Source: Rhizaria sp. SCN 62-66 (Eukaryota). Taken from it: DNA of 47,764 bases. Position numbers and translations under genes: made by a program. The notes below the pieces were generated by a model. The model had not been told where the DNA came from, ran no database searches, and saw only the letters and a program-made list of their open reading frames with translations. Of this stretch, positions 5,921-47,298 are shown piece by piece (positions within the stretch are counted from its first letter, which is position 1; each line of letters begins with the position of its first letter). Where the stretch lies: assembly GCA_001724265.1 (NCBI GenBank), contig MEDY01000226.1, positions 1 to 47,764 on the forward strand, written 5' to 3'.

Positions 5921-6867
5921 TTAGACCTTGAGCTTGTACGAGTCGCCGGTGTATGCCCGCTGCTTGTTGGGAATGGCGGTGGCGTCGGCGCCCCCGGCGG
6001 CGGCGGCGGTGAGGGAGGCGCGGGCCTCGGCCTCGCGGTCCGCGGCCGCCTCCTCGGTGATGGGCAGCGCCGCATAGGCCGCCAGCGCGTCGGGGCTCGT
6101 CAGGATGCGCGCCAAATTCGCAACGTCGTCCAAGATGCGGCGCAGCTCCTGTGCATGCGCACAGCGAGCGAAGCAAAGAGAGCGAGTGCACGCACAGATA
6201 CAAGAACGGGTAGCAAAAAGGGGGTAGAGAGAGAAAGACATCAAGGTGAGCGCAGATAGAGCGATAGCAGCAACAGGAGATAGGTGACGCGTTTAAGTAG
6301 TTGGTGAGTAGAGAGACATGACGTGGGACGTACGGAGTAGAGCATGTAGGAGAGCATAAAGACACAGAAGTAGACCGCGACGTCGGCGATGACGGCGGCC
6401 TGGTAGACGCTCGCCTGCCAGCCCGCGAGCGCAGCGGCCGTGGGGGCCTCCTTGCCGATAAAGTGAAAGACGGCGCGCGACATGCCCCAGAAGAGCATGA
6501 CGCAGGCGAAAGCGGTGTAACACAGCACGGTCTGCAGCGCGAAGCCGTCGTCGGCCGAGTTGAAGCCGACACAGGCCAGGCCGAAGATGACGCCCAGCAC
6601 GCCCACGCCCGCATCGACGTAGCGGTGGGCAAGCACCAGGCACACGACCACGGAGAGCTGGAAGAAGAGCGCAATCTTCAGGCACAGGGCCAGGCGCTGG
6701 GGGCGCAGGAGGGCGCGGGGAATGTGGCGAAGGGATACGAAAGGGGGGTGAGAGCAGGTCGGGGCTAAATGAGGCGATATCGCGCTGATGGAGCAAGTTA
6801 GGAGACGTACCAAAGCCTTAGGACTGGGGGTCACCTGCACAGAGGCAGGACCATCCATCACACACAT
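5921..6867 (-). CDS. Unknown small multi-pass (~4 TM) membrane protein, ~212-215 aa; exons 6867/6858-6811, 6696-6334, 6148-5921
   Basis: Two phase-0 GTACGT..CAG introns (6810-6697, 6333-6149) join three GC-rich exons. Four hydrophobic stretches in exon 2. Stop TAA. Confidence 0.78.
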
Positions 6868-26673: not shown

Positions 26674-27206
26674 TGCTGCGGCTTCAGTCAGACGCGCCAG
26701 TGGCGCTGCGAGAAGGAAGAAAGGGAGTGGGCTAGTGCGGTCTCAAGGGGCCAAGTTAGCGTCAAAAACGATCTATTAAAGGATCAAGCTGTCGAAAATA
26801 AAATACCGAAAAAGGTGATTAGGTGAATTAAAAAACGTCAATTAAGATAAAACTTCAAACAGACCGTTACACGACAGTGAGTATGCACGCGTGACGTTTT
26901 TGTTAATCATCCGAACCCATCTCGAGTCGGTTGGCTGATTGAGACTGAAGTCAGGGTTCAAACAGTCGAAGCCACGTGTTCTAGCCGAAAATGTTCGAGT
27001 TTGCTTGTTTTCCTTCCTACAGCACAGAAAAATGCAGGTGATTTCGCTAGTCACCATGTTGAACTATCTATGTATTCTACTAACCAATGTCATACTATCA
27101 TATAATGCCAGTAGATCTGGCCGATAGGCTTGGCCTCTTCCAGCTGCTCTTCCCCTCACTCGTCATCATACCTAGCAAACGCCCTCACCCGCGCGCCGCC
27201 ACGCAC

Positions 27207-28382
27207 TCATGCCCGACCCGCGGCGGCGACGGTCTGCTCGACCTCCGCGCGCGATGGCATCGACGGCAGCGTGCCCTTGCGCGAGACACACACCGCGGCG
27301 GCGGCGGCGGCGCGGCCCATCGCCTCGCGCGCAGGGCGTTGCTCGACAGCCCAGGCGGCTGCGAAGACGCCGCGGAAGCAGTCGCCCGCGCCCGTGGTGT
27401 CGACCACGCGGCCGCCGATCGGCGCCGCGGCCGCCACGCTCGCTTCCACAATCACATCGCTCGCCGACACGGCCACAGGCGTCGCGGCACCATCGGCGGC
27501 AGCGTTGCAGTTCTCGCTCTTGCGGTCGCTGTCGAGCGCGGCCTGGGTGGTGAAGAGGATGGCGCCGTGCTCGCCAAGCGTGAGCAGCACGCGCCGCACG
27601 CCGCGCGACAGCAGCGCCGCCGCCGCGGGCAGAATCGGTGTCGGATCAACCTCGCACACGCCCCACTTGTCGCCGTTCCCATCAGTTGCAGCCATCGTCT
27701 TGACGGCGTCAGCGCTGAGGATGTCAAGCGGCACGTCGGCGCCGGCAACGCGCGCAAGCTCGGTCTCGTTGAGCGAGATGAGCGCAAGGTACGGCAGCAC
27801 CGCAGTGTCGATCGCACTGGCGCGGCCGCCGACGTCGAGCATCGCCGGTACGCGCGCGGCGGCGGCGGCGCGCGCCACGGCAAGGTTCACGGTGTCGGGG
27901 ATCTCGCGCTGCAGCAGCACGGCGCCCGCGGACGCCACGGCGGCGGCCTCGGCGGCGGAGAGTGCGGCGCCCGAGTCGGCGTGCGCGGGCCACTGCTCGT
28001 TGGCGCCCAGCGCGATGATGATCGAGTTGTGCGAGGAGGCGTCGAGGATGATGAAGGCCTGGCCCGTGGGGTGCTCGGTGTGGCGCGTGACGAACTGCGT
28101 GTTGACGCCGCAGTTGGCGAAGGCAGAGAGGAACATGTCGCCATGGCCGTCGGTGCCGACCTTGCCGACGAAGAAGACGTCATTCTTGCTCTCAGCTCTG
28201 TCAGATTTGGCAGCGTCGAGGTACTTGGCGGCGGCGCCGGCCTGGTTAGAGCCCTTGCCACCGGGGCCGATCATGCTCTGCACGCCGTCAACGGTCTCGC
28301 CAACTTTAGGGACAGACTGCACCTCGATGTAGATGTCAGCATTTGCACTGCCGACGACCACAAGGCTCTTGTTAGACGACAT
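27207..28382 (-). CDS. RBKS: Ribokinase (PfkB family), 391 aa
   Basis: VVVGSANAD, GGKGSNQA, LLQREIP, NETEL and VDTTGAGDCF motifs. Stop TGA. Confidence 0.93.
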   Translation of the reverse strand: MSSNKSLVVVGSANADIYIEVQSVPKVGETVDGVQSMIGPGGKGSNQAGAAAKYLDAAKSDRAESKNDVFFVGKVGTDGHGDMFLSAFANCGVNTQFVTRHTEHPTGQAFIILDASSHNSIIIALGANEQWPAHADSGAALSAAEAAAVASAGAVLLQREIPDTVNLAVARAAAAARVPAMLDVGGRASAIDTAVLPYLALISLNETELARVAGADVPLDILSADAVKTMAATDGNGDKWGVCEVDPTPILPAAAALLSRGVRRVLLTLGEHGAILFTTQAALDSDRKSENCNAAADGAATPVAVSASDVIVEASVAAAAPIGGRVVDTTGAGDCFRGVFAAAWAVEQRPAREAMGRAAAAAAVCVSRKGTLPSMPSRAEVEQTVAAAGRA

Positions 28383-28874
28383 CTAAGTTGCGTCTGGAGT
28401 AGTAAGATTAGACAAGCAAACGTGAGAGGACACCTTGAGATATACAAGTATAGATTTGCATCCCTGTCGCGAAGTCACTTAAGTATCATAGGAATCTAGG
28501 TCGTCACGATTGACAGTTACGTTAGCGACATATTTATCCTCAAAGTAGAGGTTCTCGGTGCTAGCCGGGAATGGCCCGAAGAGCCTCAGTCAGCAGCATC
28601 GGCTGAGGTGGCACGTTTTACAGAGTGAAACCCAATCTTGCAGTCCGTCTATTGCGATATGCAACGTAGATCCTGAAACGCCCGGGCTAATATAAGCTGG
28701 TGTTGCGTTCGACTGGCATTTTATGCTGCTATATCACCCTACGATGTTGTTTGAAGCTAACTCACTGATTCTTAGCCGAAACGCTCCTTCACTCTTCCGC
28801 ATCCGCTCGGTTTTATCGATAGGATCAACACACCCTTGGGCCACGTTACAGCTTCATTTAGCCTTAATATTTAG

Positions 28875-32309: not shown

Positions 32310-32725
32310 TCATGACAGGTAAAACAACGAACAATGTAACACTTCTTTGTTTGACCCGTCCAGGATATCACTTACGCTGGCCGTGTGGGACGACCTAGTT
32401 TTTGAATTTATTTAAGCTGTACTTGCCAACCTTAACAAACATGTATCAATACACCTTCTCAAATTTAAATCATCCTTTGTCTGGGTCTTTCCGTTGATGC
32501 GCTGTCATTGACACCTGGTCAGCAGCAACAACTTCAAGTCCTATTCGGTACTGCTGAAATTTATCTAGGTAATTTCAAGTTAAAAAATCGTTTTTTAGAA
32601 TTTAATTAGCAGTACTACAGTTTATCTTGCAGAAAATTATCACATTTAAGTCTAAATTTTGTATTTAGATCCCAACCCCCGTTGCAGCAGGTTATTAAAG
32701 TTCGCACTGCGTGTCAGTGAATACG

Positions 32726-35314
32726 ATGGATCGTCCATCAGCTCATCATATGCCCCACATCGCAGAGCGTGCTCGGCGGGCATCACTACGCCAACTAGAT
32801 ACATCGCGTTCTGTGTATTACGCCCCGTTAAAGTGCGCTATCGCAAATGTTTCAGTCTCGTTCGCACATGAGAGCGTGGCATCAAGCATGATAGTCGGTG
32901 ACACTGCACTGTCTGCTTCACTCACCGTGATCTCGCCCACAACGCGCGCTGTTGTTGCGTCTCTGCCAGTCGTGCTTCATCGCCAAACCCAGGCTTTATA
33001 GAGTGCGTACTGCTGTCTCTCTCCTGCGACTGAGTCCGCAACCAGTCCTAGTGCCGGACCATCGTCTCTGTTATCACCGCTGCCGCATCCGACCGTCACC
33101 CCAAGCCCAACCACAACTCAGACCTTATCGCCAAGTAACAACAAAGCGCAAGCAACAACCGCTTACGCTATTGCTATTGCACCAGTTTATGGTCCGCTGC
33201 GGCTGGCGTTGCGTGAAGACCTGGGCTACAACCCCAGCATGAGTTCTAACAGCGAGTTCCAACTCACTTCAAGTCAAGACTGCGTCTCGAGTCACGATGT
33301 GAGCTGTGAGTTCTCTGCAAATACCACAGATGCAGCTGCCTCAGCACCTGCGTCGCCTGCAACATCTAAGGGCGCTGATGCGGACTTTGAGACAGGCGTG
33401 TTTGCCTTTACTGGCACTCCACACCCCCTGCAAAGAAGCATCGATTCTGACTTATTTCAGCCACTTGTTAACAGCACAAGTACCCATAGAAGCGCGAGAA
33501 ACTCTCCGCATCAGGGCAGTCGTCGCAGTAGCGTACACGCGCTTTTTGTAGCATCCCGGACATCTCTTGCCGTTTCATCGGCCACTGCGTCACCGGCGCT
33601 TTCGAGTGCTACGATAGGACAAGACAGCCTCAGCGATGTTCTCAGGATCATTATTCCTAAACTGGGTCTTGTTTGTGATGTTTCACCGCCGCATCTAGGC
33701 AACCGCACGGCCAACGATAGCCAAATCAATCCGAGCGGCGCTCAATCAACAATCAAAACTGTTTTGAATGTTGTCGCTCTTACACCACAGTCTGAGACTG
33801 CTCCCGTCGCCAACCTTACTGTGCAAGTGGCGGTTGACTTCATCATGCCCGATGCTGCTGGCACAAATATTCCATTTGTACCAGGGTGCGCTATGCCCAC
33901 GGCTTTAGTAGCTGTGTCTGCAGCTGACAGCGACCAGACGGTCAGCCGGCGTGCAACCTTTCCGTCTGGTCTGCCGCAGCGCGCACACGGCTCATCACCG
34001 CCTGCTCCCAGACCAGCCGATAGTCCCACAACAACCAAGCTCCAGTACTATTCATCAACCTCCTCTCAGAGTGACAACGACTGTGACCATGAATCCGCCA
34101 ACGCACAAGAGCACCGGCGTGGATCTGAACGGACAGCACCGTGGCCCACGCGTGGCGACGGCGGTCGGCTAAGCGAGTTCTTACAAGGATATCTTGATAC
34201 ACAGCGCCCAGCGCAAAGTTCAAATACTCAAGCGCAAGAGATGCAAAGTTCGCAGCTACCGCGCTTGCCACTGCAATCGCCAGGACTTCATACTGCTTCA
34301 AGCCGAAACACAGTCACCATCTTGATGACGCCAGCTCCGGCTGTTACACTTCCAGTCAACGCAGCTGGAACTGACACCGTCGTCGCAGCATACAACGCTG
34401 AGAGTGTGCGCCTTGCGGAACGACTTCGAGCAACAGCAAATCGACGCAACTCACTGCATCGCCTAAGATCAGTCGCTTCACAGGTTGCTGTTGCACCACA
34501 ATATTCCACACACGAGCAGCGCACCGTAGTTGCCGCCGCACCGTCATCAACACCACTTCCTACGCGCACTATTGGAGCATCGCTGTTGCAGGGTTCTTCA
34601 GGGCCTTTATTGCATCCAGCTCCAACAATTTCCACAAGACCTGCCGAAAACGTGATTTCGGGACTTCCAGGTCTCGAGAGAACTCCGTCGCATGAGGCGG
34701 CAGCGCGCTACGCGTCCGGCCTCGCGGCTGCGCAAAGACCTGGTTGGGCGCTGCGCTCGCTCGCTGTTGCCCCACGCAATATTGCTGCTAGTGCAAGCAC
34801 TCATCAGCAACAGCAGCAACCACAACCATTGCAGGAGCAGGAAGGTGACGCTCGTGAACAAGCAACAGCATCTGGACGGGCACTGCGCATGCCAGACCCG
34901 CGCAATGTGCGCCGCGGCGCGCGGCTTGTTGAAGCTATTGCGGCCGCAGCAGGCATTCTAAATGCCGAAAACAGTTTTTCACGCAGATTAAGTGGTGGTG
35001 GAGAGGGTGGTGAGTCGTCGCGACTGTCGTCTTTGGCGGAGGCAGTGGCTGCACAACGACGGCACGCAACGCAGACGCAAGCGTTGCTTGCAACACTACC
35101 ACTTGAGACTGTGACAGTAGCAGACGAGACGGCGTTACGGCGTCAGGACGCGTGCTGCGGTGTATGTCTTGCTGCGTACGTGCGGGGAGATATCCGGCGT
35201 TGTCTGCTACCATGTGGTCATGCGTTCCACAAGCAGTGTGTGGACAAGTGGCTTTGGGTTAAGATCAAGTGCCCTGCTTGCTGCGGCGAGGTCACAGGAA
35301 AAACACATCAGTGA
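32726..35314 (+). CDS. RING-H2 (C3H2C3) E3 ubiquitin ligase-like protein; start uncertain (ATG 32726 with in-frame TAG at 32999, or ATG 33239)
   Basis: C-terminal CGVCL..Y..GD....LPCGHAFHKQCVDKWL....CPAC. The frame is open from 32699 to 35314 except for one TAG. Stop TGA. Confidence 0.8.
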
Positions 35315-35648: not shown

Positions 35649-38600
35649 TTAGCTCTGCGTGTTGCCCGAGCACGTAAAAGCAGGAGGTGTCATCTCTTCG
35701 GGCAAAACTGAGCGCTGGAAGGCATTGAAGGCATACTTCTTTTTGCCAGTGTTGCGGATCACGTTGGCACGGCGCGTGCCCTGACCGCGTAACACGTTCA
35801 TCACGCCCACGGCCTCGCGCTCGCCCAGTCCCAGCTGCTTCAGCGTGCGCGCCGCTTCCCACGTTACAGCCATCGCCGTGCGGTCCTTTGCGCTCTTGCA
35901 TGACACCGTGCGGCCCGCGCCAAGTGCGCGTGTGAGTGCCGTCGCCACAGTGTGCGCCGTCAGCGCGCGCCGACTGCCCTGCGCCACCTCGTGCTCCAGC
36001 CTCAGCTGCAGAGCCACCAGCGCTGCCGCCGATACAAGCGGACCCGACGCAGCTGCGGCCATGACAGACGCGGCAGCAGCCGCAGCGCCCGCGGCGCCGG
36101 CGCTCTCGGCGGCTGCGGCGACCGCGGCTGCGGCGTCCGCGGCCAGCGCGGCGGTTTCGAGGCGCACGCGGCGCCAGACGTGGTCACGCAGCACCTTGGC
36201 GGCGTCGGCGTTGAGCTCGCCCTGGCGGCGCGTCTGCGCAAGCGAGAGCTTGTTCGCCAGCGCCTGGAGCTCATTGATCCCCGTCGTGAAAAAGGCCGCA
36301 GTGACGGGCACCAGCGGGCCCGCGCTACCAGCAGGGCCGCGCAGCTCCGCGGGCAGCCGTGCGTACAGATCAGGCGGCAGCAGCAGCGTCACCACGGGAC
36401 CCAACGCCAACGCGTCACCGACAGCAGAAGCGGCGGGCGCAGCTGTCGAGACGCCTGCGGCAAGTGCAATGGCGTCACCCGCAGCGCGCGCAGGGGCGCG
36501 CCCGTCGGCGCGGAGTGCGGCGGCCAGCGCGGATGCAAAGCAAGTCTCGACAGCCTCGGTCGCTAGGACGTCATCGCTGACGCCGCTGCCGCTAGCAGCG
36601 GCCGCTCTCGCACCCGTTGAGGGTAAGTTTTGGGGGCGTCTGGGGACGGCGGGCGCAGCAGATGCGCCAGAACCGCTGCCGCTAGTAGCATTATTGGGGG
36701 CGTTAGGCAGCGAGGGCAGAAAGGAGCCCGCAAAGGCAGTGTAGCGCAGCTCCGAGAGCGCGGGGCGGCCGTGGGACATCGGTGGCACCGACGATCCCGA
36801 CGCGACAGCAGGTGACGCGAAGGCCGCCGCGAAGGCCGACGGTGGCATTGACGCGCCGCTCGCGTTGCTGTTGGCGCTAGAGCTTGAGTTAGTGTGCGTC
36901 GTCGTGTGGCGCGGGTGCGCAGTCGCCAGCGTCGCGGCATGCGCATGGGGAGCAGGGTAGTTGGGACGAGCTGCCGGCGCGTTCGCACTCGTACCAGCAG
37001 ACATGACAGGGCTGTTAGCGGCACGAGCGCGCGAGATGACAAGCGGCGGTGCGGCGGCAACAGCGGCGCGCGCAACGGGCGACCAATGCAGCATGTCAGT
37101 CGACGTAGAGCTCGTGCTGTCTGCGGCGTTTGTGGCAGAATCCAGATGCGCGAAGTCGTGACACGCACCGGGCGTGAGAGTGCGCGCGGAGGCGGGCGTC
37201 AGCGGTGTGAAGTCGAGCGTAGCGCCCAGCGCCAGCTCGCCCCACTGGGCCTCGCCAGTGCTCGCGCGTCCCTCAGCCACGCACGCCTCGGCCTCTGCGT
37301 CGGCCTCAGCCTCAGCGTCGCCAGCGTGGAGCAAGACAGCGGTTTCCTTGACGACTGGGGCGCCGTTGACAAGCGGCTCCACAGAGAGGCTGAACGCCGC
37401 GTCAGCAACCCAGGCGTCAGTGCGCATCTCTGCCAGCGCCTCAGCCACAGCGGGAGTCGTCAACAGCGCTGTAGCCGCGGCCGCGATCTCGCGTGCCTCA
37501 CACTCATTCGCGCTGACAGCATTTTCGTCACCCAAGCCGCCGTTGTTAAGAAGAACGATGCCACGTGCTATGGGCGCGAGGTACGGCGCGATTGGGGCAA
37601 GAGCGGCGGCCGCGGCAGAGGCGGTGTCTGCAGCACTGCTGCCGGACGCCGCGTCCGTGTCGGGCACGCGGCAAAGCGGCGCGCGTGGTGCAAAACGAAT
37701 ATGCAGAGACGCGATCCAGCGGCAGGCCCACTCGAAGTCTGAAATCATGCAGAACTCGCTGCCGAACGTGGACAGGAACGAGTCCATGTGCAGCAGGTAT
37801 CCTGCGCGCGGCCACAGTGCCATCTCGCTCGCGGGTGCCGCGACCACCGACGCCAGCACGTCCGTCAGCAACGCTGACAGCGCCTGGCTCGTGACTGGCA
37901 CGCGACGTCGACGCAGCTCGGACACGGCGGCCTCAGCGCGCTCCGCAGCGGCCGTCAGCGAGGGCATGGCTGAAGTCAATGACGCCGCCGCAGCGCGCAT
38001 TGCGGACGCACTGAACGCCGCAGCCGGGTCGCCGGAAAGCGGTTCGGGCGTCACGGGTGCAGCGGCCGCGGCGACAGGGGCGACAGGTTTTACGGCGCCG
38101 TCCTCATCTTGCTCGCCGAGCGGCGGCAGCGCGAGCGTGGGGATCTGCCGTGACGGCGCGGGCAGCGTGCCGAACCGCCTCGCGTCGTCGCTACCAGCGG
38201 TGCCTGCAGTGCTGCCGACGAGGGGCGAGGGCGCGGCAGTAGTTCCGGTGCGCGCGCGCGTCATAGGCGACATGAGCGGCGAGGTCAGCGTGCCCGAGCC
38301 TGAGGCAGCGTTGGCCGCGGCAGCGACCGCCGCAGCGCCGGCGGCTTGCGCAGCCGCAACGAGCGCGGAAAGCGCGGCGCGGGCCTGCGTCGCGAGCGGA
38401 GTCATGCCGCCGCTGCGGTATGATAGGTGCGAGGCCAAAGCGCCAAACGTCGCGCCCGACAGCGCGATGCGGACCGGCGCGGCAGCGGAATCCCCGATGA
38501 GTTTAAGCGCAGGCGCAGCAGCGGCGGAGACTGGCCGGTACAAAGGCAGACGCGCGCGTGCGTCTGCGCGGTACAGCGTCAAGCGCGTGAGCTGCAAGTG

Positions 38601-41600: not shown

Positions 41601-44600
41601 GTGCGTGTGCGCAAGTGTAGAGTCGGAGGCGTACACGAAGCATGCGGCGAACCAGCCCTGCGGCATCGCGGCCGCCAGCACCGCCGCGTCCGCCGCCGCC
41701 GCCGCAGCGCCCGCCAGCGCCGCGTTGCCGCCTGCAGATGAACTCCTGCCCTGCGCCTGCGCCTGAGCCTGCGCGCGGAGATGTGCCGCGGTGGCGGGCC
41801 CAATGACCACGGGCGCGAGCGCGAGTCCGAGCTGGTCGACCTCCTGCGCCTCCTCGCCGCCCGCCAGCGCAAGCAGCCTCACAGCGCGCACGCTCTTGCC
41901 GCCGCCCTTGCCCGCACCAGCGGTGCCGTCGCGCCCGCCGTCTCTGGTGAGCGCGGGCAGCGGCAGCAGCGCGCCCGCGATGCCCGCCGCGCGGACTGCG
42001 GCGCGTGGACGGAACGGCAGCGGGTCGCGCGATGCGGGCACGTGGCGCCACCACCCAGCCCCACGTCGCCGGCCGGTTCCTGCGCTCGCACTGCTAGCGC
42101 CCCCCGCGCCCGCACCGCCGCCCGCGCCGCCACGCGCAAGCACGGCGAGGCTGCCAGCGGTGGCGAGCGCGGCGGCGGGCGCGGCGGCGGGCGGCGGCGC
42201 GGCGATGGCCAGGCGTAGCGCGCGCGCGGAGGCGTGTTTGAGCACGCGCACCCACTGCGCTGCCGCCGCGGGCGACTCGGTCTTGAGCAGCATCGTGCGC
42301 GTCGCCGTCACGATCTCGAACCGCCGCGGCGCAGCCACGGAGGCGGCGGATACGGCTGCGGCGGCTGCGGCGGCGGACGCAGCTGCGGCGGCGGCCGCGG
42401 TGGCCGAGACCGACGCCGCAGACCCCGTCACGGCGGCCTCTGTCGCGGCGGCCGCGGCGGCGTTGGCGTTGGCGCTGGCGCTCGCGGCGGCGCGCAGCGT
42501 TTTATGCTGCGTTTTGCGGTCCGCGTCGGTCGACACGAGGCGCACTGACCGGATTTCGGCTAGTGACAGCGCACCCAGCGCGCCCAGTGGCGCGAACAAT
42601 GTCTCCACGGCAGCCGCCGACAGCACCACAGGTACTGCACTGGCACCCGTGGCCGCTGCAGCGGCGACGCCGGTCGCGATTGCGCTGGAGCCGGGGCCGG
42701 TGCTGGCCGAGAGCGCCGCGGGCGGGACCGGGGAGCGGTCGAGCACGGCGGCCAGCACCGACAGCGACTCAGCCAGCGCGGCGGGTGCGGGCCGCTGCTT
42801 GAAGTAGATGACGAAGCCCAGCGCGAGCACGAAGAAGCGCGTGCGCCACGGCCGCAGCGAGAAGCCCGGCGCGTTCTTGCTTAAAGTGCCGAACACTAAC
42901 CCGCATCCGGCGGCGGCGCTCGCAAACGCCGACTGCGCGGAATCACCGCCTCCAACCGCCGCGGCGGCGCCGACGGGGCCGGCACGCGCGCGCAGCGGTG
43001 TCTCAGTGCCCTCGGCAGCGTGCGCGGGCCAGGATAGCGACCACACAGCCTGTGCGCGCGCGCGGGCCTGCGCAGCCGCGGCGGCGCGCGCTTGTTCTGC
43101 GGCGTGTGCGCGGGCCAGAGTCAGCGCGGCTGTCTGTGCCTGCACCTGCGCCAGCGCCAGCGGCGCGCTTGCGGCCTGCGGCGTCAGCGGCTTCGCCTGT
43201 TGCTGCTGTTGTAGTGGTGATTGCTGCTGTGGTTGCTGTTGCTGGAGCTGCTTCGTGCGGGCGACGTCATCGTCGTCGCTGTCTGAGTTGTCTCCTGCGC
43301 CAGCAGCGCCGTGCGTGCTGTTGCCGGCCGCAGTGAGCGCCGGGCCCAGCCCCGTGGCGACGGCAACCGACGCGCGCACCGCGGCAGCAACCGTGGCGGC
43401 CGTCGCGGCCGCGGCGGCGGCGGCCGGGGAGGGCCTGAGCGCGGGCGAGGCATCGCGGTCGCTGCCATCGTCCTCCTCATCGTCCTCCTCTTCCTCCTCC
43501 TCGTCGTCGTCCGCGCCCGGACCTGCTCCGGCGCCACCGCGGGGGGCAGCGACGACGGAGGCGTCGGCCTCGGCCTCTGGCAGCGGCGGCAGCGGCAGCG
43601 GCAGCACTATCGCCGCAGCGGCTGCGCTGTCTCCGCGGCTCGCGCGCGTGGTGGCGGTCGCCGGCGTCGGCGACTGCGGTAACTGCACCTGCAGCTGCTG
43701 CCCCTGCTGCGAGCCCCTTCTCCCACCAGCATTAGCACTAGCACTCGCAGTTAAAGTTACGGTGCCGGACGCAGTCGCAGTGAGAGTGAGCGTGGTGGAG
43801 GCGCGGCGTGCGCGCGCGCGGTCGGCCTCTCGCATGGAGCGCGCGCGCTGCGTAGCGGCCAGCAAAACCCGCAGTAGTTTGTCGCGGTCGCGGCGGGAGC
43901 GCGTCCGCAGCAGAAGCGTGCGTACGCCGGCGGCCTCCACTCCGCCCGCACCTGCAGCCGCGCCCGCGACGCTGGCCGGCGCGGCCGCGCTCAGAGCGCC
44001 CTGGGTAGCTGTTCCGCTCATCGTGAGGCTATTAGCGGCGGCATTTGCGGAGCTGCTTGCGGCGACGCTAGCGGTTAGGAGCTCAGTGAAGCGCGGGGTG
44101 GCGATGACGACGACAATGGCGGTCTCCGCGTCGGCTGCGGCGGCTGCGGCCTCAGCGACGGTCGCTGCGGCAGCGTGCGCGGCGTCGCCCCCCGTCAGCG
44201 GCACGGCCTCGGCCTCCACTGCCAGCAGCGCGTTCAGGTACGCGCGCTCGGCCTCGAAGTACCCTGCCGAAACCGCGGCCGCGCCCGCCAGCGCGGAGAC
44301 CTCGGCCGCGGCGATAGCCGCCACGGCGGCGGCGTTGGCTGCAGTGGTCGCGGAGGCGGAGGCGGAGGCTGCGGATGACGAATCGGACGCAGAGTCATCG
44401 TTGAAGCGGCCCTGGCCACTCGTTGCTGCAGTCGCAACACCGGCGGCAGTGACGGCGCCCGCAGGACCGCCGGCGGCGAGCGCGGCGGCGCCCGCAGCGG
44501 CAGCGGCAGCGGCAAGAGCCCCGGCCGGCGGCGCGCGCGCTGGCACTGCGAGTGCAAAGGGGCAGGGCGGCGCAAGCCCGAGCCCGTGCGCCGCAGCCAC

Positions 44601-45842
44601 GACGGCGTCGCCGGGCAGCGCGCCGACGATGGCGCTCAGAGGGAAGCGCTTTAGCGGCGCGCCGCACGACGCGGCCACCGAGGCGGCCTCTGCGGCCTCT
44701 GCGGCCTCCGCTGCGGCGACCGAGGAGTGGCCAGCAGAGACTGGGACGGTGTTGTTCGTCGGCAGAACGCTGTTGCGCTGGCGCGGGCGGTAGTAGCGCA
44801 GCCCGGCGGCGTCTGCAACAAGCGTGCGCGGCTGCCACGCCGACGGCAGCAGCGCGCGCGCGAGCGAGAAAGTTGAGGATAGAGCTGACAGGGCGGACGG
44901 CCGCAACTTGAGCACGTCGGCGACGGCGACGCCCACAACGGCCTCGCCCGACACGGCCGCAAAGCCGGGGCTCAAAGTCAAGCTCTGCCGCGGGCTGGAG
45001 GCCGCTGGTGGGAGGCTGCCGCGGACGTCATCAGCGGGGCTGCCCAGCGATAAACTCTCTGATGACTGTGCTGTCGTTCGCGGTCCAGAGCCTCTGTCAG
45101 CCGCTGCGGCGGATAGCGCAGCCGATATCTGGTTCCTCCCAAAACGAGCGCTAGCGCCAGCACCAAGATCATTGGCGTCAGGGTCTGCGTCGCCTGCAGC
45201 GGCTTCCGCGGCCGCGACCGCGGTGGCGATCGCGACGACCCAGCCAGCGGCCACGGCGGCGGAGGGCGCGCGGAACACATACGTGCGCCCCGGTCGTCCA
45301 GACACGTTCACGCCGGCGCCGCCACCGCCTCTAACGGCCGCCGCGTCGCCCTCGGAGATGGGCTGCACGCCGCCCGCGCCCGTGCCCGCGGAGTCTGATT
45401 CGGCGGCCGCCGCGGCGGTGGCGAGAGTGACTGTGAAGACGCGGTCCGCGGGGGCCGCGAAGGTCGCTTCAAGCGCAGCCAATGGGAGCGCGAGCGCGTT
45501 AAGCCCGTCAAGCTCGGCGGCAGCAAGCGCGGCGAGTGGGATCGCGCCCGCAGCGGCCGCGCGCGCAGGGTCTGCGGCGGCGAGCGCGGGGGACTTGTAG
45601 TAGTAGAGCGCGCCGCGCGCGGGGTCGCAGATGACGTGGCGGGACTGGAAGAGCTTCAGACCCGACGGGCTGCGCTTCTCAAGCAAGCCCTCAAAGATAG
45701 CGCCCGGCAACGCCGCCGCAGGGTGCTGCGAGGACGAGGTAGAGGTCTAGGAGGACGCGACGGGGGCGGAGGGGGGCGCGCGGGCTGCTGCGTGTGCGGG
45801 CGACTCAGGGCCGAACGCAGACGCCGCGGATGAGGGCTTCAT
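35649..45842 (-). CDS. INPP4: Inositol polyphosphate 4-phosphatase (INPP4) with three N-terminal PH domains, >3350 aa; start uncertain (ATG 45842 with in-frame TAG at 45749-45747, or an unseen upstream exon)
   Basis: Catalytic CKSAKDRT plus INPP4 blocks ATNLHLQ, SFLSTFGSEFCMISD, GINELQALA, NTGKKKYAFN. PH motifs FEGLLEK..WVVAI, WQPRTL..LRYY, GTLSK..WRTRFFVL..WVRVL. Stop TAA. Confidence 0.88.
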
Positions 45843-46217
45843 GCAATGCGCCGAAGTTAAACGGAGACAGAGTAAAAAACAGCGGTATAGTTGTGTTGCT
45901 CGTATGGAAAAGCTTAAGTCTGTGGCAGCAGGAGTCGAAAGGAATGGAAAGGTGAGGGGCGCGTGTGATGGTTGTAATACTGCCAAAACTTGGTAAATAT
46001 GACTGCTTTTCAGCGTCAATGTATGATTCAATTGACAAACGTGTACTTTTAAAAGTATTTGTAACCGCTGTGAAATTACACTTCTTGTGTTGCCGTATCT
46101 GCTTCGAAATCTCTCGGGTTAGCTCGTGGCCTTTGAGCCCAAAAGGGGGGTTGCATCATCGAGATCTCAGAGGGACTCAACGGACTTGCGAGCACCCACT
46201 TTCGGAAGCAATATACA

Positions 46218-46244
46218 TGTACAGTGTACATATGTACATGTACA
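46218..46244. repeat. Cluster of four palindromic TGTACA hexamers
   Basis: Copies at 46218, 46225, 46233 and 46239. Confidence 0.75.
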
Positions 46245-46752
46245 AGCGCTAATATTTTCGAGTTTTTTTATTGCATTTGTGATAAAGAGATGAAATATGG
46301 CAACTCCATGAAATGCTGTCGAAAGAACAAGATTTAAATTGTTTTCGCCGAGATGCTATGTATTTGGTGATCGGCGTCACGCGTCTTCAAAAGTACGCAT
46401 GCTTGCTGGTGCTGCCGTCATCGATGCTGAGACTTTCTCTCTACCGCACACACAGTGCATAAACATAAAGAAATTACGCCAACAGCACAACAACAAATGA
46501 ACGATTGTTGCAGCAACATTGTGCATAATGCGCACTTCATTAAGCTATGCGAAGTAGAAATCAAATACCAAGATAGGCAGACAGAAAGATCGTGAGTCAA
46601 TTGGAATGTAGTATTGTCACAAAATGGCTACATAATATGCTCATGTTTGATGGTATGGAGTTAATTGAGACTTTGACTTCGTCTGCACGCGAGTGAATTG
46701 AAGAGAAGCAAAGGATGGGCGTCATGAAGATAGCATGACCTGCGAGACGTAC

Positions 46753-47298
46753 CTTCTTGAAGCCAAGGTCGTTATGACCTCGCAAAAGCAGCGACGGGAG
46801 ATGTAGAGGCCGTATTTGTGGATCAGACCACTGTGGTTGTTATTGATGCGGCTATAGAATCGGGCAACCAGGAAGATAGCAACAGAGTTGAAGGGTGAGT
46901 TAGACGCCAATGATGTGAAGATGGCATATAAAGCAAAGAACAATGTACCAGCAAATAAAGACTGCACATCACAATAAGAGTATTTACGTATTTGCAATAC
47001 GATCATGTTAAAAACATTTCAATGACTGAGCCATACAGTCATCACCGCTGAGAGCGCAAAGAGAGATGTTAAAACTGTCTAGATGTCTACTTCATATTTG
47101 AATGTAGAATCCGGTCAAAAACACGTGACTCCGCCATCCCGCCATCATATGGTGTAGGTTGCCATGGTAGAACTTTGTGGTGGTCAGATCGCTGTGTACA
47201 GAGAGATCTGGCCACAAAATGACAATTTCAGGGATGCGGTTACCCTTGCCAAATAACTCGCCTGCCTTGACAGACTACTGCCAGATGAGCTCAGCCGT
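46753..47298 (-). pseudogene. RPS29: Degraded, intron-retaining 40S ribosomal protein S29 (uS14) pseudogene
   Basis: Exon 46851-46753 (TAG acceptor, GTACGT donor) encodes RINNNHSGLIHKYGLYISRRCFCEV, a frameshift, then NDLGFKK. This matches RPS29 GLIRKYGL..CRQCFR....DIGF.K. An upstream remnant (47298-~47232) reads ACG-AELIWQ*...FGKGNR. Confidence 0.72.

Follow-up and report, generated by a model that had tools for sequence, protein, structure and literature searches.

Published nuclear codes that reassign only UAG give it to leucine, glutamine or serine, while UAG read as glutamate has been described together with UAA read as lysine or as glutamate (PMC11687900). UAG specifies leucine, with UAA kept as a stop, in the rhizarian exLh and three TARA phyllopharyngean ciliates, glutamine in Iotanema spirale, Hartmannula sinica, Trochilia petrani and Protocruzia tuzeti, and serine in Scotinosphaera (PMC5304391, PMC11687900). 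Both UAR codons specify glutamate in peritrich ciliates and Blastocrithidia (PMC11687900, PMC5304391, PMC12153298), and in Oligohymenophorea sp. PL0344 UAG is read as glutamate, UAA as lysine and UGA as stop (PMC10553269). No published report of UAG read as glutamate with both UAA and UGA kept as stops was found in a search of openly accessible articles at the level of listings and abstracts.

The window analysed here, a stretch of 47,764 nt representing contig C226 of genome G000 (34.9 Mb, 714 contigs), contains a long gene with one in-frame TAG at codon 32. This TAG is most likely a symptom of a genome-wide change of code and probably an ordinary codon. A nuclear code with UAG as its only reassigned stop, read as glutamate, and with UAA and UGA remaining stops, is considered likely and would probably represent a new variant, the residue being a prediction. 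As in PL0344, UAG is predicted from genome data to be read as glutamate by a suppressor tRNA(CUA) that is closest to tRNA-Glu; however, PL0344 has also recoded UAA and has 10 tRNA-CUA genes with 69-93% identity to tRNA-Glu (PMC10553269), whereas in this genome most stops are UAA, a single CUA tRNA (64%) was found and UAG is very rare. The uncoupling of UAG from UAA, with UAA and UGA as stops, is common to this genome and the UAG-only codes, but the leucine, glutamine and serine codes differ from it in residue (here most likely Glu), in the Glu-type body of the tRNA and in the additional G57S and T58K changes of eRF1. The glutamate meaning itself is that of the UAR codes; in peritrichs and Blastocrithidia UAA is also glutamate (and UGA is Trp in Blastocrithidia), whereas here 0/128 TAA or TGA triplets continued as coding sequence.

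The sequence-only reading had placed the start of this minus-strand gene at an ATG at 45842 and its interruption at TAG 45749-45747, and frame reading confirmed both (Table 1). Translation from the ATG (45842-45840) gives MKPSSAASAFGPESPAHAAARAPPSAPVASS and then the TAG; from ATG to the TAA at 35651-35649 there are 3397 codons plus the stop, with no other interruption. The large ORF had been described as lacking an early Met, and the next one after the start is indeed only at codon 608 (ATG 44021). Its length had been given as 3353 aa, which matches a count from TTG 45710, while from stop to stop it measures 3365 aa. A codon-position Markov model, with long ORFs of the same genome as its training set, scored 60-nt blocks over 46684-45845 as non-coding or neutral, and from 45844 downwards as coding in the gene's frame. 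This bears out the earlier observation that the ATG lies at an AT-rich to GC-rich transition. For the 93 nt from ATG to TAG, the gene's frame scored -106.5, the next best model -111.9 and the non-coding model -133.5. The TAG is present in the DNA: when base 45749 was checked against an assembled contig of run X2, which shares a study with a possible source run and is not fully independent, 0 letters differed over 43526-47000. Of the listed pieces of RNA run X5, which match parts of the gene, none extends across 45749, and the run provides no evidence either way.

Table 1. Positions of the in-frame TAG codons and associated gene features in the window
Feature	Position	Strand	Remarks
Start ATG of PH-domain / INPP4-like gene	45840..45842	-	AT-rich to GC-rich boundary
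Codons 1-31, low-complexity Ala/Pro/Ser N-terminus	45750..45842	-	Coding-like, gene's frame, best of 7 models
In-frame TAG, codon 32	45747..45749	-	Inferred sense codon, most likely Glu
Remaining open frame, 3365 codons	35652..45746	-	PH-like start 45698 by eye; Pfam PH piece; Cx5R-type motif
TAA, true stop	35649..35651	-	
Second in-frame TAG of the window	32999..33001	+	RING-finger gene, from ATG 32726 to TGA 35314

The gene had been named INPP4 on sequence alone. The residues CKSAKDRT, encoded at 35900-35877 near the C-terminus, are taken by us to be a Cx5R-type catalytic motif. The INPP4 identity is a look-alike label, and what ties the protein to INPP4A and PREX2 is weak, namely an Atlas feature match to the INPP4A cluster (0.93, with a recognition score slightly below the reliable level) and a PDB match to the PREX2 C-terminus (E 0.028). 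In the Pfam search of this protein one PH domain was the only match (piece 42332-42228) and no significant match to an INPP4 or PREX2-type phosphatase domain was detected. 'INPP4-like' would thus be the furthest naming supported, as a look-alike label.

Genes of this genome have GC-rich exons and AT-rich introns, with 51 inferred introns (median 169 nt) and GTACGY donors. TAG 45749 is very likely read as sense, although this one site is less certain than the genome-wide code because C-rich acceptors exist and an in-phase mini-exon is formally possible. Under the alternative, the TAG is an intron acceptor and an upstream ATG mini-exon is spliced to 45746, whatever the code. The earlier caveat that the C-rich run before the TAG resembles acceptors was fair: C-rich acceptors were found at 6697 and 5395, TAG terminates 21 of the 51 inferred introns and many lone TAGs within family matches proved to be intron acceptors. 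The 90 nt before this TAG nevertheless have a coding-versus-noncoding score of 26.8, exceeding that of the final 90 nt in every one of the 51 inferred introns (maximum 24.3, several of the top-scoring intron ends being miscalled introns), and the 93 nt up to the TAG start with an ATG at the composition boundary. A 33-nt ATG mini-exon reaching to GTCCGT at 46185 is phase 0 and in phase with 45746, but the intron required would have a weak donor and a length of 439 nt (maximum among the inferred introns, 475), and the codon-position model detected no coding-like exon upstream of ATG 45842. As had been claimed for GTAYGT-type donors, no GTAYGY occurs between ATG and TAG; a looser GTCTGC at 45822 would shift the frame of exon 2 whichever of the two acceptors were used. 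Splicing at this TAG is accordingly rated as quite unlikely.

The other in-frame TAG of the window, at 32999, represents a weaker case, the coding signal of the RING gene being weak. A second strain, sampled in a separate study, nevertheless retains this TAG: its contig from run X4, covering 32400-34875, has 8 differences, all elsewhere. The only long TAG-ended ORF of the window (27087-28499, plus strand) was rejected as a shadow of a PfkB/ribokinase-family gene on the minus strand (28382-27207) that ends in TGA. Two adjacent long ORFs on the minus strand (26742-15176) contain disintegrin and thrombospondin type 1 (ADAMTS-type) repeats and probably form one spliced gene for an ADAM/ADAMTS-like surface protein. 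An exon-like stretch (46853-46753, minus strand), flanked by a TAG acceptor and a GTACGT donor, resembles a decayed, frameshifted copy of ribosomal protein S29 and gave no Pfam match.

As an unbiased test, each stop triplet preceded by 40 coding-like codons was scored for whether the same frame was still the best one downstream. The DNA amounted to 877,244 bases and consisted of tiles totalling 400 kb, the window, and search loci that overlap in some cases. Of the 26 TAGs, 20 were followed by the same best frame, which was the case for none of the 74 TAAs and none of the 54 TGAs, some of these TAAs and TGAs being intron-internal and not gene ends. For four TAGs the downstream sequence was non-coding-like; three of these continue in frame, two of them up to a donor-like site and the other in poly-Gln, and the fourth lies upstream of a gene. 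A short-window version of the test with 18 codons was noisy (TAG 23, TAA 6, TGA 9) and a first, codon-only version was too strict. No clear TAG-ended gene was found in approximately 2.5% of the genome. TAG comprised 23 of 148,247 confidently coding codons (0.016%), compared with 6535 GAG/GAA and 5740 CAG/CAA codons; the two TAAs and three TGAs in this set were taken as noise and were not inspected singly.

Gene families were scanned as well. A lone TAG was present in nine of 142 Pkinase matches, exon-internal in five and an intron acceptor in four. Exon-internal TAGs in family matches numbered nine (five kinases, eRF1, one ubiquitin-like and two USP), with further cases in UBE2J1 and a helicase. 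Lone TAGs that proved to be intron acceptors, in four kinases, four dyneins and in DEAD, kinesin, myosin, SNF2 and PP2C matches, were not counted. All inspected rows bearing TAA or TGA were introns and none was exon-internal; mixed-stop rows (two UCH, two SNF2, one adaptin, one kinesin and one HSP90-family) were left uninspected. Internal stops were absent from 20 ABC, 13 SMC and 22 AAA matches. Features that mark a UAG-only reassignment were present, namely UAG inside conserved regions, UAA and UGA as stops, no clear gene ends at UAG and a tRNA with a CUA anticodon.

The earlier proposal had been sense or readthrough UAG, with no residue named, and exon-internal TAGs, the tRNA-CUA and an altered eRF1 support sense. 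Pseudogenisation had been thought unlikely, and decay should have yielded TAA and TGA as well. The same applies to assembly error under a standard code: the assembly is of metagenome type with low depth, but errors would also produce TAA and TGA, and the TAGs recur across other runs and assemblies. The single eRF1 gene, which carries one of them, cannot be a pseudogene. Editing of mRNA (UAG to UGG or CAG) could be considered, as none of the RNA pieces listed covers a TAG site, but it leaves the tRNA-CUA, the altered eRF1 and the missing TAG gene ends unexplained. Error, pseudogenes and editing are together regarded as very improbable.

The residue was assessed from homologue columns. If UAG is sense, glutamate is expected with good confidence. 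The in-frame TAG of the eRF1 gene (L178:2464-2466, minus strand) is located at human Glu107, in a column with 114 E, 6 D and no Q among 120 homologues, and the UBE2J1 TAG in a column with 99 D, 14 E and no Q of 120. Pfam scoring of six residues at eight sites ranked E top, with summed bits relative to E of -1.5 for Q, -1.7 for K, -6.8 for S, -11.3 for Y and -13.5 for L; Q and K are barely separated from E (<2 bits), and Glu and Gln are discriminated by two columns only, in one of which (UBE2J1) Asp is the main residue. The helicase column was uninformative (N20 K17 Q10 R10 E9 D6; 88 rows kept from 150) and the kinase columns were variable. Solved homologues have H or Q at the DDX46-like TAG site, and L or Y scored highest at the PLA2G12-like TAG site.

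Some contexts are more in line with UAG as glutamine and the other two stops unchanged, the arrangement used by Iotanema spirale and certain ciliates. A neighbour-composition model put Q first and E thirteenth of 20 residues; the mean for the 23 TAG sites was -0.31, compared with +0.49 for held-out Glu (P<0.001) and -1.17 for held-out Gln (P=0.016). At a position where ubiquitins of this genome use CAG, a ubiquitin-like domain (L119:1501-1716, plus strand) carries TAG, and Gln-rich tracts hold 3 of the 23 TAGs (13%), compared with 0.8% of GAGs and 21% of CAGs. These tract TAGs are explicable by mutation supply through CAG-to-TAG transitions that low-complexity sequence tolerates, since further codons one non-silent step from CAG show the same enrichment and are commoner (CGG 23 and CAT 38 versus TAG 3). 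Gln is also absent from both acidic columns, and the sole tRNA-CUA found is Glu-like, not Gln-like; a Glu-bodied tRNA and two acidic columns make UAG as glutamine hard to explain, and this reading appears improbable.

One tRNA-CUA gene was identified by pattern search (G000:C84:76006-76078, minus strand), between GC-rich genes on a contig that also contains kinase and kinesin genes. A DNA search and a second pattern search detected no second copy, and the pattern was found in 0 viral contigs. Further CUA or UUA tRNAs may exist because the tRNA survey was partial (63 of 506 candidates scored; one CUA pattern search). The gene scored 58 bits with the Rfam tRNA model; the minimum free energy fold lacked a cloverleaf (z -1.5), whereas Rfam and pair counts gave one. 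This is a standard cloverleaf with GG and TTC, which may set it apart from tRNA-Pyl, and the ARAGORN label 'Pyl' follows the anticodon. Identity was 64% to the genome's own tRNA-Glu(CUC) and no more than 55% to 15 other isotypes compared; against the two types of tRNA-Gln it was 45% and 39%. The first five acceptor pairs and the entire T stem are common to tRNA-CUA and tRNA-Glu, indicating a tRNA-Glu body. UAG as leucine, of the exLh type, was rejected on the -13.5 bits relative to Glu, the 4-nt variable loop and the 48% identity to the genome's tRNA-Leu.

The tRNA-CUA has U11-A24, U13-G22, A46 and a 4-nt variable loop, which in E. coli act as identity elements for Glu (PMC9976931); the D-stem pairs also occur in the genome's tRNA-Gln, but A46 does not. 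The anticodon loop has C32-A38, while the genome's tRNA-Glu has C38. In human tRNA-Glu(CUA), A38 boosted UAG suppression more than 20-fold, and the optimised tRNA gave approximately 95% Glu (PMC12204705). The engineered human tRNA-GluV13(CUA) and the tRNA described here have in common a Glu body, a CUA anticodon and C32-A38 (PMC12204705), but the former is artificial, while the latter occurs naturally and has diverged further in its D arm and anticodon stem.

Decoding of UAG could also be ambiguous or leaky, with the Glu-bodied tRNA-CUA partly charged with Gln or competing with residual termination by eRF1. U35 attracts GlnRS to amber suppressors (PMC9976931), but human GluRS charges tRNA-Glu(CUA) normally (PMC12204705). 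The contexts of TAG are intermediate between Glu and Gln, but its counts in Gln tracts lie within the range of non-silent CAG neighbours. TAG is very rare (23 codons), a single tRNA-CUA copy was found and T32S in eRF1 is a mild change; no TAG gene ends were seen, however. Leaky decoding of this kind is considered unlikely. Given a sense UAG, mixed or leaky decoding carries a small share of the probability and Gln a lower one, with Glu remaining the preferred residue. If UAG were leaky, the UAG within the eRF1 gene itself could serve as feedback.

A single eRF1 gene was found, on G000:C63, other search matches appearing pelota-like on reading of their sequences. In a second assembly (L196), which is genomic and possibly related in origin, the gene was identical at 1626/1626 bases and had the same TAG. 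The protein has T32S in the GTS motif and G57S and T58K before ASNIKS, at positions that are invariant in homologues (T32 in 79/79, G57 and T58 in 120/120), and it retains E55, NIKS, S70 and YxCxxxF. T32G accompanies the UAG reassignment of Iotanema and is absent from standard-code relatives (PMC5304391, PMC9161772), so that Thr32 of GTS is changed in both, to Gly there and to Ser here. T58 is altered in Paramecium, and T32 contacts a third-position G (PMC5681627). PMC12440015 yielded nothing on T58, G57 or T32. T32S, G57S and T58K suggest that recognition of UAG by this eRF1 is probably weak or lost.

A scan of metagenomes for eRF1 recovered the same sequence once, the rest being relatives at 45-69% identity; GSS and KASNIKS were absent from all 15 metagenomic relatives listed. 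One relative (L201) has Gln at position 107. Database matches at approximately 70% were uninformative on lineage. Five metagenomic eRF1-like sequences (L209, L210, L214, L215 and L217), presumably ciliate-like, have in-frame TAA or apparent frameshifts directly after NIKSRV. The UAG in the message of eRF1 itself raises the possibility of feedback on release-factor supply, if low-level termination at UAG persists.

Eight of nine listed runs hold part of the window, in three of them at a small share; the labelled ones are bioreactor, wastewater, sludge and fuel-cell metagenomes. The genome contains dynein genes, which we assume to be axonemal-type. An HSP90 search identified one sequence (P0241) with 88% identity and several with 72-73%, and such close relatives in public assemblies could date the code change. 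One contig contains a very divergent SSU rRNA gene (L081, G000:C706:4459-8903) with four group I intron matches and, judged by eye, a His-Cys-box-like ORF in its first insertion; the rRNA ends look heterolobosean to us, and the contig may be a binning passenger. Five ubiquitin genes (L117, L118, L120, L121 and L124) each encode one divergent unit, preceded by an additional Met-Ser and followed by a tail of three residues. The ubiquitin genes seen are not head-to-tail polyubiquitin; several lie at contig ends, and no polyubiquitin junction was readable. The domain fused to the ubiquitin-like domain of L119 resembles a peptidase S74 chaperone.

A UAG code of this kind could have arisen when a copy of a tRNA-Glu gene gained a CUA anticodon and A38. 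The retained Glu acceptor and T stems would allow charging by GluRS. C34 pairs with G only, so UAA would be untouched by this tRNA. The altered GTS and TASNIKS motifs (T32S, G57S, T58K) would weaken or abolish reading of UAG by eRF1. Rare UAGs would then arise from GAG, silently, or from CAG in tolerant tracts, and TAG 45749 would be among them, with ATG 45842 as the start of a protein of 3397 aa. A more specific scenario is held only slightly more probable than its converse: the UAG = Glu code with UAA and UGA as stops arose recently, in a lineage outside the known cases, and was caught early, with a natural C32-A38 and an eRF1 that drops UAG alone through T32S, G57S and T58K, its own UAG being a possible feedback element.

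UAA and UAG nearly always change meaning together, and split codes test why. A code in which UAG alone is read as glutamate, with two stops kept, would add a variant for which both the candidate suppressor tRNA and the eRF1 are in view. Eukaryotic code-expansion work seeks a release factor that reads UAA and UGA but passes over UAG, and this eRF1 is a natural candidate. For this genome, gene models built with the standard code would be cut or mis-spliced at TAGs.
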